From Trueperaceae bacterium (GTDB lineage Bacteria; Deinococcota; Deinococci; Deinococcales; Trueperaceae): a DNA stretch of 64,000 nucleotides. The notes beneath the pieces are model-generated. The model saw nothing but the letters and a program-made list of their open reading frames with translations. It ran no database searches and had not been told where the DNA came from. Positions 51,166-53,496 of the stretch are shown piece after piece. The DNA is taken from the NCBI GenBank assembly GCA_965213925.1, contig OZ243927.1:3968001-4032000 (forward strand), read 5' to 3'. The first letter of the stretch is position 1; each line of letters begins with the position of its first letter. Made by a program: the position numbers and the translations under genes.

Positions 51166-51659
51166 ACGCCTACACTGTCAAACTGCTCAAACCGGGCAAA
51201 GGTACGGAAATTACCTATCAAGGTTTTGAACTGCTACGCGAACCGAATCATCTGCTCATTCATGCGCGGTGGGACAGAGACGCGCTCGAGCTTGGTTACG
51301 TGACCTTTGAGACCGGCGACCACTTTTATGAACACTACTACACGAACAAATGGTTCAACATCTTCGAAATTCGTAGTGAAAGAGGTCGGCTCAAGGGCTG
51401 GTACTGCAACGTGACGAAACCGGCGAGGGTCGAAGACCGCACGGTTTACTCAGAAGATTTAGAACTCGACCTCTTTGTCTCGGCGGACAGGAGGCACGTA
51501 GTCACGCTCGATAAAGAGGAGTTTGAGGAGAGGGAGTTTAGCCAAGAGGTTCGGGAGGCTGCTTTGAATGGGCTCGAGGCGTTGCGAAAGATGGCGCGTT
51601 TGGCTACGCCACCCTTTGACAGTACCTCTTCCCGTTTGAGTCTGGGCAAGTCGGTGTGA
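51162..51659 (+). CDS. DUF402 family protein
   Basis: KGWYCNV, DLELDL, LDKEEF. Confidence 0.85.
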   Translation: MNAYTVKLLKPGKGTEITYQGFELLREPNHLLIHARWDRDALELGYVTFETGDHFYEHYYTNKWFNIFEIRSERGRLKGWYCNVTKPARVEDRTVYSEDLELDLFVSADRRHVVTLDKEEFEEREFSQEVREAALNGLEALRKMARLATPPFDSTSSRLSLGKSV

Positions 51660-52051
51660 AGCTCATAGGCTATCCCTGGGACGTAGTAAGGGAACTCGCG
51701 CTTCCAGCACATGACTACGCCATTTTCGGCAGCGCACCTCTTCTTGCCTACGATTTAATCGAAAAGGTTGGCGATATAGACCTTTTGGCGAGGGGTGAAG
51801 TGTGGGAGAGGGTTCAGCAGTTCGGTTTCATAGAAACTACGCCGAAAGGCGATAAAGTTGTCCGACTTGATGAAGGGCTCGAGGTATTTAACGCCTGGCT
51901 CGGCTTGAACACTGACGACATTATCAACCATGCCAAAATTATAGACGGGCTTCCCGTTGCAAACCTAAAGGACGTGCTCGAGTTCAAAAAGCAGCTCAAC
52001 CGACCTAAAGATAAGACCCACATTGCGCTTATTGAGAGCTTTTTACATTGA
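51656..52051 (+). CDS. Hypothetical protein, nucleotidyltransferase-like
   Basis: FGSAPL...DIDL; K..LNRPKD. Confidence 0.65.
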   Translation: MKLIGYPWDVVRELALPAHDYAIFGSAPLLAYDLIEKVGDIDLLARGEVWERVQQFGFIETTPKGDKVVRLDEGLEVFNAWLGLNTDDIINHAKIIDGLPVANLKDVLEFKKQLNRPKDKTHIALIESFLH

Positions 52052-52076
52052 CATCCCCTTTGCGCCTTGTTACGAT
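52048..52076 (+). promoter_or_regulatory. Sigma70 promoter of the aspS2 leader
   Basis: TTGACA (52048), 17-nt spacer, extended TGn-TACGAT (-10 at 52071). Confidence 0.8.
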
Positions 52077-52083
52077 ACCCGCA

Positions 52084-52146
52084 ATGAAATGTGCCGCACG
52101 CCCAAACAACCTATCTAATAATGATGATTGGCAGTTCGGGGCATAG
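52084..52146 (+). CDS. Putative Asn/Asp-rich attenuator leader peptide MKCAARPNNLSNNDDWQFGA
   Basis: ATG 7 nt after the -10 (leaderless); AAC AAC .. AAT AAT GAT GAT; overlaps the antiterminator arm. Confidence 0.75.
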   Translation: MKCAARPNNLSNNDDWQFGA

Positions 52147-52168
52147 GCGTCACGACGATGCTATGACA

Positions 52169-52201
52169 CCCCGAGGCGAACCTCGGGGATTTTTCTTTTT
52201 T
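52169..52201 (+). terminator. Attenuator terminator upstream of aspS2
   Basis: CCCCGAGG-CGAA-CCTCGGGG-ATTTTTCTTTTTT, 11 nt before the aspS2 ATG. Confidence 0.85.
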
Positions 52202-52212
52202 GGGAGTTCAAT

Positions 52213-53496
52213 ATGATAACCGCAACCCGCAGCCTCGTGTCTGAAATTCCGACGCAGTTAGGTGAAAATGTTCTTCTAAGGGGCTGGGTGCACAACCGCC
52301 GCGACTTGGGCGGCGTCAAGTTTTTAATCCTGCGTGACCGGAGCGGTCTGGTACAGTGCGTTTTCTCCAAAGGGGACATGCCGCTGCAAGAGAGCTGCGT
52401 CGAGGTAACCGGCAAGGTTGTTGAAAATGCGCGGGCTCCGGGCGGCTTTGAACTCCACGCCGACGGGCTCCACATCATCTCCGAAGCGACGGACGCGCCG
52501 CCCATCGAAATCCCGAAAGAGGAGTGGACGGTCAACCCGGATACGCTTTTGGAGTACCGCCACGTCTCGCTAAGAGGTCAAAAGGCGCAAGCCGCGATGA
52601 AGGTGCAAGCCGAACTCGTGCGCGCCTTTCGCGCTTATCTCAACTCGGAGCAGTTCACCGAAATCTTCTCCCCGAAAATCGTCGCCGCGGGCGCAGAAGG
52701 GGGCGCGAACCTCTTCGAGGTGGACTACTACGGCAAACGCGCCTACCTCGCACAGTCGCCGCAGCTCTACAAGCAGATTATGGTGGGCGTTTACGAGCGC
52801 GTCTATGAGACCGCGCCGGTCTACCGCGCCGAACTCTCGCACACCTCGCGCCACCTCTCCGAATACCTCTCGCTGGACGTGGAGATGGGCTTTATCGACT
52901 CTGACAGCGACGTGATGGATTTGGAAGAAGCGCTGCTCAAGTCCATGATGGCGCACGTCGGGGAGCACTGCGAGCGGCAACTCGGGGTGATGGAGGCGGA
53001 GCTTCCCAACCTAAACGTCACCTTTCCGCGCATCCCTCTTTTCGAAGCTCGAGACCTTATCAAAGAGCGCTACGGACACCAGACGGGCGGCAAAGACCTA
53101 GACCCCGAAGCCGAACGCCTCTTAGGGCGCTGGGCGAAAGAGGAGCACGGTTCGGACTTCGTCTTCGTGACGCACTACCCGCAGGCGGCGCGTCCCTTCT
53201 ACACCTACCCGACCGAGGACGGGCTCACACGCGGGCTCGACCTCATCTTTCGTGGCGTCGAAATCACCTCGGGCGGGCAGCGGATTCACGAGTACGGCGC
53301 GCTTGTTGACGAGATGAAGAAGCGCAACATGGACCCGGAGCGTTTTCAGGGCTACTTGGAAGTGTTCAAACACGGGATGCCGCCGCACGGCGGGTTTGCG
53401 ATTGGGGCGGAGCGGCTGACGGCGCTGCTTTTAGGAATTAGCAATGTGCGCTTTGCGCGGGCGTTTCCGAGGGATGGGAGTCGGTTGCAGCCCTAA
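52213..53496 (+). CDS. aspS2: Non-discriminating aspartyl-tRNA(Asp/Asn) synthetase (archaeal-type AspRS2)
   Basis: 427 aa without the bacterial insertion domain; GWVH.RRDLG, APGG, LAQSPQLYKQ, EITSGGQR, GMPPHGGFAIGAER. Confidence 0.92.
   Translation: MITATRSLVSEIPTQLGENVLLRGWVHNRRDLGGVKFLILRDRSGLVQCVFSKGDMPLQESCVEVTGKVVENARAPGGFELHADGLHIISEATDAPPIEIPKEEWTVNPDTLLEYRHVSLRGQKAQAAMKVQAELVRAFRAYLNSEQFTEIFSPKIVAAGAEGGANLFEVDYYGKRAYLAQSPQLYKQIMVGVYERVYETAPVYRAELSHTSRHLSEYLSLDVEMGFIDSDSDVMDLEEALLKSMMAHVGEHCERQLGVMEAELPNLNVTFPRIPLFEARDLIKERYGHQTGGKDLDPEAERLLGRWAKEEHGSDFVFVTHYPQAARPFYTYPTEDGLTRGLDLIFRGVEITSGGQRIHEYGALVDEMKKRNMDPERFQGYLEVFKHGMPPHGGFAIGAERLTALLLGISNVRFARAFPRDGSRLQP

Follow-up and report, generated by a model that had tools for sequence, protein, structure and literature searches.

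Bacteria of the Deinococcus-Thermus group have two routes to Asn-tRNA(Asn), of which the tRNA-dependent one is served by an archaeal-type AspRS; in D. radiodurans and T. thermophilus this extra AspRS and GatCAB make Asn on tRNA(Asn) despite the presence of AsnRS (PMC4206432). How a cell chooses between the two routes was not described in the literature we examined. We approached this question through the DNA upstream of aspS2, the gene for an archaeal-type, non-discriminating AspRS (ND-AspRS), in a 64-kb stretch of genome (the window, to whose positions the coordinates below refer) whose relatives by name are Trueperaceae, phylum Deinococcota. Our analysis indicates that aspS2 is very probably controlled by a ribosome-mediated transcription attenuator built around a leader peptide. 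An attenuator in front of aspS2 that reads Asn and Asp codons would offer a testable answer to the question of route choice, the indirect route being induced when tRNA charging falls.

Anatomy and predicted switching of the aspS2 leader

The regulated gene was identified from profile scores. Its 427-aa product (52213-53496, on the + strand like every other window feature described here) scored 563.6 bits against NF003483, the model for aspartate--tRNA(Asn) ligase (cut-off 353), and 398.9 bits against TIGR00458 (cut-off 368.4), while AsnRS models scored below their own cut-offs on it; its Pfam domains are tRNA-synt_2 and the OB anticodon domain. The NF003483 score agrees with a preliminary description of this DNA, which had called the gene an ND-AspRS and had proposed an Asn- and Asp-sensing leader ahead of it.

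We read the DNA upstream of aspS2 directly from the sequence. It carries a sigma-70-type promoter, TTGACA (52048-52053) and TACGAT (52071-52076) with a 17-nt spacer, which matches the consensus at 10 of 12 positions and has a TG dinucleotide just ahead of the -10 hexamer; the -35 hexamer overlaps the TGA stop codon of an open reading frame (ORF) that lies upstream, at 51656-52051. Seven nucleotides past the -10 hexamer, an ATG at 52084 opens a leader ORF of 20 codons and a TAG stop (52084-52146; MKCAARPNNLSNNDDWQFGA). It has no Shine-Dalgarno sequence and is presumed to be leaderless. Four of its 20 codons are Asn and two are Asp, all of them within codons 8-15: AAC AAC (N8, N9), AAT AAT (N12, N13) and GAT GAT (D14, D15), which together occupy 52105-52128 and which we refer to as the regulatory codons.

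The segments that would make up the switch lie at and beyond the end of this ORF. Segment 2, the 5' arm of the putative antiterminator (TTCGGGG, 52135-52141), falls within codons 18-20, immediately 5' of the stop codon at 52144-52146. It is followed by a middle hairpin (52142-52165; CATAG-G-CGTC, loop ACGAC, GATG-CTATG) and then by segment 3 (CCCCGAGG, 52169-52176), the shared arm, whose partner is either segment 2 or segment 4. Segment 4 (CCTCGGGG, 52181-52188) is followed by the U-tract, A-TTTTTCTTTTTT, the two together spanning 52181-52201. Segments 3 and 4 pair to make an intrinsic terminator that separates the leader ORF from aspS2, CCCCGAGG-CGAA-CCTCGGGG and then A-T5CT6 (52169-52201); the stem (52169-52188) has 8 bp, 7 of them G-C, and a loop of 4 nt, the T-run reaches 52201, and the predicted energy is -16.7 kcal/mol. 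From the ATG to the end of the U-tract is 118 nt. The Shine-Dalgarno sequence of aspS2, GGGAG (52202-52206, also read from the sequence), is not sequestered by the terminator. Promoter, leader ORF, codon cluster and terminator were thus all found where the preliminary description had placed them.

That description had also proposed an antiterminator that competes with the terminator, and folding agreed with it. In this structure TTCGGGG (52135-52141) pairs with CCCCGAG and CATAG (52142-52146) pairs with CTATG (52161-52165), with an inner hairpin in addition, and the middle hairpin stacks on the helix between segments 2 and 3 (the 2:3 helix). At -19.6 kcal/mol it is the minimum free energy (MFE) structure of 52135-52176, a stability reached by 0 of 200 shuffles, and it is also the MFE fold of the nascent RNA from 52084 to 52176. 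When segment 4 was included (52135-52201), the MFE structure, at -25.2 kcal/mol, consisted of the middle hairpin and the terminator. The antiterminator thus has the chance to form first, and by these folds it would be expected to give way only when segment 2 is unavailable or when there is time enough. The middle hairpin is present in both folds and so is compatible with the terminator. A ribosome shields about 9-12 nt past the first base of its A-site codon, and on this figure segment 2 would have to be covered while a ribosome is at the stop codon but could stay exposed while one is held at the Asp/Asn codons. Given a footprint of that size, the two mutually exclusive structures correspond to two ribosome positions, with segment 2 masked at the stop and free at the regulatory codons.

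We propose the following mechanism. Transcription would start on or beside the A of the ATG at 52084, and a ribosome would load on the 5' end and translate the 20 codons; a leaderless mRNA demands that ribosome loading and transcription be coupled right from its first nucleotide. With Asn-tRNA(Asn) and Asp-tRNA(Asp) in good supply, the ribosome would reach the TAG at 52144 and its footprint would hide segment 2 (UUCGGGG). Segment 3 would then pair with segment 4, the terminator would form, and RNA polymerase would stop in the U-tract (52190-52201), some 12 nt short of aspS2. If one or the other charged tRNA runs low, the ribosome would stall 9-30 nt upstream of segment 2, on the Asn/Asp codons at 52105-52128; with the middle hairpin prolonging it, segment 2 would capture segment 3 once that is transcribed, no terminator would form, and aspS2 would be transcribed. 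The extra ND-AspRS would raise the supply of Asp-tRNA(Asn), on which GatCAB acts, and of Asp-tRNA(Asp) as well. We infer the transcription start site in this organism, the translation of the leader, the stalling and the response to Asn and Asp from the sequence. Among sequencing runs, two of DNA or unknown type, both from one study, contained this stretch, and no RNA run did.

Conservation of the leader across the phylum

AspRS2 orthologs were found in all 41 relatives and, across the phylum, in 159 of 161 sampled genomes; we examined the upstream DNA in sets of 30, 80 and 60 loci, with some genomes entering more than one set. The first two sets comprised 110 loci, of which we could use 107; the three not used had a match that began past residue 15. 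One locus, L031, was 99% identical. A first scan with a regular expression for the promoter and an ATG detected promoter and short ORF at 89 of the 107 related loci and at 56 of the 60 further ones; the four misses among the 60 show the leader ORF by eye, and relaxing the -35 element brought back two of these. A second pipeline required a promoter, a start-proximal short ORF and a terminator, and did not use Asp or Asn as a criterion. It found this arrangement 5' of aspS2 at 143 of 167 loci, giving 125 unique leaders that fall into four families, Trueperaceae (the window's family, f1) and three others labelled f2, f3 and f4.

Although Asp and Asn had played no part in that selection, at least two such residues were present in 123 of the 125 leaders (66/66 in Trueperaceae, 29/29 in f2, 23/25 in f4 and 5/5 in f3), so the expectation that an Asn/Asp-rich ORF would be conserved in relatives was borne out. 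The enrichment was specific to the reading frame. Asp and Asn made up 19.4% of in-frame residues in the 66 Trueperaceae leaders, compared with 1.6% and 3.7% in the other two frames, and 38.7% in f2, 31.9% in f4 and 35.7% in f3; across all families the other frames gave 0-3.7%. The peptides themselves differ from group to group. The Trueperaceae pattern is ...R-D-D-N-S-x-x-R-x-L-G-A, the Calidithermus/Meiothermus type is M-L-R-x-D-D-N-x, a second f4 group has M-R-P-R-L-L-N-N-G/A/S, f3 has MRGLLNNDR, and f2 has ...N-N-V-N-D-D-P-C/R or ...N-N-N-D-N-D-P-x. The order and number of Asp and Asn residues thus vary (NNDD, DDN, DNN, NN, NNNDND, NVNDD), while their presence, their frame and their position close to the 3' end of the ORF are constant. 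This variability between groups points to codon identity being read and not to an RNA sequence motif. Beyond the Asp/Asn cluster and the residues imposed by segment 2, the leader peptides are not conserved.

Codon choice in the leaders also departs from that of the gene they precede. AAT accounted for 79 of 105 Asn codons in leaders (75%) versus 71 of 392 in the aspS2 coding sequences (18%), and GAT for 67 of 159 Asp codons (42%) versus 234 of 1337 (17.5%). The leaders therefore favor the rarer U-ending codons, whereas Trueperaceae genomes themselves favor AAC and GAC. Rare codons in the leu leader parallel this use of rare codons ahead of aspS2. The GAYGAYAAU core of the Trueperaceae leaders is also conserved as nucleotides, and this regulatory-codon core may be under an additional constraint at the RNA level.

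For the statistics of pairing we aligned 57 unique Trueperaceae leaders selected with an Asp/Asn motif filter (alignment A1). A1 omits L005 and L032, in which the script picked the wrong hairpin, and L016, L018, L033, L048 and L090, which failed the motif filter. The terminator was paired in 93.8% of cells and in at most 63% when the partner was slid; 7 of its 10 pairs had changed on both sides, as had been anticipated for a covarying stem. The antiterminator helix was paired in 91.1% of cells, against at most 66% with the partner slid by 1-3 columns. Segments 2, 3 and 4 are highly conserved because segment 3 must fit both segment 2 and segment 4, and a few substitutions can be followed through all three. 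Where A96 in segment 3 has become G, segment 4 takes C in 6 leaders and segment 2 keeps U, leaving a G-U pair; in L007 a three-way change is seen, in which CCCCAAGG is matched by UUGGGG and CCUUGGGG. In the other families the leader has GGGGG(G) after the stop codon and CCCCC(C) at the start of the terminator, and hence the 2:3 helix recurs there with different sequences.

The geometry is as consistent as the pairing. Of the 66 unique Trueperaceae leaders, 40 have 7 nt between the -10 hexamer and the ATG and 17 have 8 nt, a conserved spacing that suggests a transcription start on or beside the ATG. Segment 2 begins 7-12 nt ahead of the first base of the stop codon in 59 of these 66, so that the stop overlaps it, and in f4, f3 and f2 the G-run begins 2-5 nt after the first base of the stop, which it overlaps or follows by 0-2 nt. 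Measured from its last codon, the main Asp/Asn run lies 9-21 nt upstream of the G-run in all leaders scored: 43 of the 59 scored from Trueperaceae have 21 nt there, those of f4 have 9-11 nt, those of f3 have 10 nt, and 26 of the 29 in f2 have 11 nt; in the window N12 lies 18 nt upstream of segment 2. As far as can be judged from the sequences, this geometry is the layout that attenuation requires. The families differ in how the stop and the G-run are arranged. In Trueperaceae the stop lies inside segment 2 and the peptides end in LGA or FGA, whereas in f2 the G-run follows the stop, and a CCCC/GGGG 1:2 hairpin brackets the stop. RNAalifold predicted this hairpin as CCCC-GNUA-GGGG around the stop codon, and with it the modeled f2 leader, like the trp attenuator, has the logic of 1:2, 2:3 and 3:4 pairing in full.

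A covariance model built from A1 gave one full-length match in the window's own genome (E 4.7e-16), the remaining matches there being to the terminator only. Among 101 sampled Trueperaceae genomes, a tally that includes the unpublished G187, 79 had a match at E <= 0.01 and 74 at E <= 1e-7; in 5 of the 79 the match was to the terminator only. The strong match lay 10-230 nt upstream of aspS2 on the same strand in 25 of the 26 genomes for which both positions were known, and in the 26th (G087) the match and aspS2 were on different contigs. Five second-tier matches that we inspected (E 6e-6 to 4e-5) were set aside as no Asn/Asp leaders, being terminator-like and located at the ends of other genes or inside ORFs. 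Because the whole layout is conserved in relatives, we regard the arrangement, on this comparative evidence, as more than chance.

Two side observations concern individual leaders. The same-genus genome G002 has two aspS2 copies (C2:213573-214963 and C6:165-1556), each with its own leader (model matches at E 2.8e-16 and 4.3e-16), and one of the copies has an in-frame TGA. In the f4 loci L163, L166, L167, L169 and L181, leader hairpins CCCCCCCGG...CCGGGGGGG are followed by almost no U-tract and were rejected by the terminator filter; termination in this group may be different in mode, or weak.

Weighing the proposed attenuator against other readings

Conservation of ORF, Asp/Asn cluster, spacing, G-run at the stop and terminator in four families supports the attenuation mechanism that had been proposed from the window alone, and several observations weigh against it. 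Support for the 2:3 helix is mostly conservation; changes on both sides were seen in 4 of its 8 pairs and in only 10 cells, and related sequences can beat shuffles without any structure. In the window D14 is only 12 nt, and D15 only 9 nt, upstream of segment 2, which, for a ribosome footprint of the size given above, is at the edge of what a stalled ribosome leaves free. Neither folds nor comparison with relatives revealed a convincing 1:2 anti-antiterminator in the window, for which reason a leader left untranslated, such as one reached by transcription continuing from the upstream ORF, would by default be read through. A 4-bp 1:2 hairpin, CGAG/CUCG, was considered and not adopted for the window, where it is absent; it is paired in 78% of cells in Trueperaceae with weak covariation, and 42 of 500 shuffles equaled its observed count of covarying pairs.

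The device is also dispensable, as a strong model match was found in only the 74 of 101 genomes mentioned above, the other 27, about a quarter, having none, and 13 of the 107 loci were clearly without a leader. At L019, L023 and L077 aspS2 directly adjoins the conserved upstream ORF, which in the window is the one at 51656-52051. At L085 and L089 the promoter (TTGACA...TAGACT) has been retained and the leader is gone, the aspS2 start lying about 7-8 nt past the -10, and here aspS2 appears, from its sequence context, to be leaderless and unattenuated. L082 has by eye neither a leader nor a promoter-like site, L044, L046, L047, L050 and L063 have unrelated DNA upstream of aspS2, and L012 and L054 have a different short ORF. 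L015 has kept the hairpins and has only one Asn. The device can evidently be lost.

A last point of this kind is physiological. The window's genome (G000) encodes GatB, AsnRS and a 603-aa bacterial-type AspRS, and we found no AsnA in it. It contains two AsnB-like ORFs that score above the TIGR01536 cut-off and begin Met-Cys-Gly (G000:C1:1407696-1409426 and G000:C1:2757805-2759094, the second of which matches in three pieces in one frame). With AsnRS and two AsnB-like genes available, the need for induction on Asn shortage is an assumption. Since the AsnB-like proteins may make free Asn, we do not claim AspRS2 as the only source of Asn here. The preliminary description placed the enzyme on the tRNA-dependent route to Asn; in this genome that route need not be the only one.

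Could the hairpins be flipped by something other than a translating ribosome? A terminator/antiterminator pair is by itself silent on what flips it, and many aminoacyl-tRNA synthetase (aaRS) genes are under T-box control or autoregulation (PMC2965389, in part), so that a trans factor binding the RNA, such as AspRS2, another protein, or uncharged tRNA as in a T-box, might do so with translation of the ORF irrelevant. We consider this unlikely. T-box riboswitches resemble the aspS2 leader in being terminator/antiterminator switches that induce aaRS genes, aspS and asnS included, on uncharged cognate tRNA, but they bind tRNA themselves, with no ribosome required. An E-value scan with Rfam 15, run over 51500-52700, returned only sub-threshold, terminator-driven matches (best 18.1 bits versus a gathering score of 49.5), and no match to a T-box Stem I, specifier loop or T-box antiterminator sequence; the leader (52084-52201) is moreover far shorter than a T-box leader. 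Nor does a binding factor give a reason for an in-frame Asp/Asn cluster, a fixed distance from promoter to ATG or a stop codon locked onto the G-run, and the only candidate binding site, the middle hairpin, is not conserved in sequence among the aligned Trueperaceae leaders.

Slightly less credible still is a leader that is translated and gates the terminator but senses general translation capacity or coupling instead of Asn and Asp charging. Any ribosome short of the stop codon would free segment 2, and in folding the untranslated window RNA defaults to the antiterminator, both of which speak for such a sensor. However, the Asp/Asn enrichment is frame-specific and phylum-wide, and Asp and Asn correspond to the two tRNA substrates of the regulated enzyme. 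The leaders of ilvB and leuC in the same genome are rich in Val/Ile/Leu or Leu, and several D. deserti leaders carry their own cognate residues, judging by the leader list in PMC4007540.

The short transcript or peptide might alternatively act in trans, as a small RNA or small protein, with control of aspS2 secondary. The accounts of rnTrpL and peTrpL in Sinorhizobium describe such roles for an attenuator RNA and a leader peptide, and the terminated RNA would be about 118 nt long. Against this, the peptide is unconserved except for the Asp/Asn cluster and those residues that segment 2 dictates, and the element is single-copy and always immediately 5' of aspS2, which makes this a quite improbable substitute for attenuation; a role in trans could be an addition to the control of aspS2, not a replacement for it. 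Finally, a chance ORF next to a plain terminator of the upstream gene (51656-52051) would be in keeping with a promoter match that is not significant by itself (5 promoter-like sites in 5 kb versus 2.0 ± 1.4 in shuffles) and with a whole-leader fold z-score of only -1.74, but it is already contradicted by the comparative data, in which the full layout is kept in 125 unique leaders from four families, often with a different upstream gene, and the terminator follows a promoter and directly precedes a Shine-Dalgarno sequence and start codon as an attenuator would have it, and it seems to us barely tenable.

Returning to the leader-peptide attenuator, we incline, with some reserve, to a broader statement of it: that it is an ancient, phylum-wide device reading Asp and Asn, the amino acids of both tRNA substrates of the non-discriminating AspRS; that it is the sole known leader-peptide attenuator that senses Asn; that it decides when a cell with both routes turns on tRNA-dependent Asn synthesis; and that the AAU/GAU bias tunes its sensitivity.

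Earlier descriptions and other leaders in the genome

The preliminary description knew of no ribosome-mediated attenuator for aspS2. This does not hold, since Table S9 of De Groot et al. 2014 (PMC4007540) lists a leaderless peptide, MFAALANNNDNDPH, for the D. deserti ND-AspRS and proposes transcription attenuation. By differential RNA sequencing, Table S10 of that paper places the transcription start site on the A of the leader ATG, that is, at position 1 of the ORF. The D. deserti leader is like that of the window in being a short, leaderless, Asn/Asp-rich ORF directly 5' of the ND-AspRS gene; the window peptide is unlike it in being longer (20 aa) and cannot be aligned with it outside the Asn/Asp cluster. 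In the f2 genome G088 (L143) we found a peptide identical to MFAALANNNDNDPH, within the same layout of promoter, G-run and terminator as in Trueperaceae. Both this type of element and its association with ND-AspRS have thus already been published, as a prediction, for a sister family.

The tables of De Groot et al. give the peptide and the start site with no structural model, conservation analysis or functional test. In the literature we covered, in which subscription journals are thinly represented, we found no other description of an aspS2 leader, no structural model or cross-family survey of one, and no experiments on how aspS2 is regulated; term look-ups in PMC2965389 and PMC4833913 returned no mention of aspS. 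What is new here, on the evidence of sequence comparison, is the phylum-wide conservation, a predicted four-segment model with three architectural variants, and the rules of codon bias and spacing. The advance over the 2014 annotation of D. deserti is one of breadth and of a structural model, not of a new principle. With 125 leaders built as three variants of one four-segment design, the aspS2 leader offers a compact model for attenuation on leaderless mRNAs.

The likeness extends to better-known systems. The classical attenuators of trp, his, leu, thr, ilv and pheA (Yanofsky 1981, as summarized in PMC4007540) likewise combine a short ORF that carries codons of the amino acid being sensed with a terminator, an antiterminator that overlaps it, and a stop codon at which the terminating ribosome masks segment 2. 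Unlike these, the aspS2 leader would initiate without a leader sequence, theirs being led by a Shine-Dalgarno sequence; it controls a tRNA synthetase and not a biosynthetic operon, two amino acids would be sensed, and in the window there is no clear 1:2 pause or anti-antiterminator hairpin. To our knowledge, no classical leader-peptide attenuator senses Asn. The E. coli pheST attenuator, with its pheM leader peptide, places an aaRS operon under a leader peptide rich in the cognate amino acid; in contrast to the aspS2 leader, it is led by a Shine-Dalgarno sequence, is proteobacterial and senses one amino acid. The leaderless polycysteine short ORFs of mycobacteria, as presented in bioRxiv 10.1101/834739, are similar in that, by being translated, they signal to downstream genes how well one amino acid is supplied, and differ in phylum and in the amino acid concerned.

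We also scanned the window's genome for other leaders, requiring TTGACN, 16-18 nt, TANNNT, 5-11 nt, an ATG or GTG, a short ORF and a perfect terminator. This strict scan returned five matches, all before amino-acid genes: ilvB, leuS, aspS2, leuC and pheS. A looser scan added proS among 32 mostly doubtful matches. The other leader ORFs encode MFHVHFTFLFTEFASEFVAVMAGGVLILGSWGVV (ilvB), MTYSFTTLRLGGSKHE (leuS), MNRIPHLTNVKQVPSICRGALS (proS), MFYPRANLLSLISLGVVAA (leuC) and MRGYLASPFTK (pheS), and these five lie at loci L111 (G000:C1:3570071-3572087), L112, L113, L114 and L115. Cognate enrichment was evident in the ilvB and leuC leaders, as noted, and was not clear in those of leuS, pheS and proS. 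By their sequences, the five look like counterparts of the leader-peptide set of D. deserti. Inspection by eye of the regions upstream of asnS, gatB, the bacterial-type aspS and both asnB-like genes of this genome revealed no visible Asn/Asp leader or terminator. In a test for leaderless genes across the same genome, 13 of 51 strict promoter matches with a long ORF placed the start 5-9 nt past the -10; this spacing is suggestive as a sign of leaderless genes, the numbers being too small to lean on.

The ORF upstream of the leader (51656-52051) encodes 131 aa. Pfam and NCBIfam searches assigned it to no family, and in a protein atlas it fell only in clusters of "hypothetical protein", one of which carries DUF6036 on 13% of its members. 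Its C-terminal motif (...RPKD..HI.L...) recurs 5' of aspS2 in many Trueperaceae.

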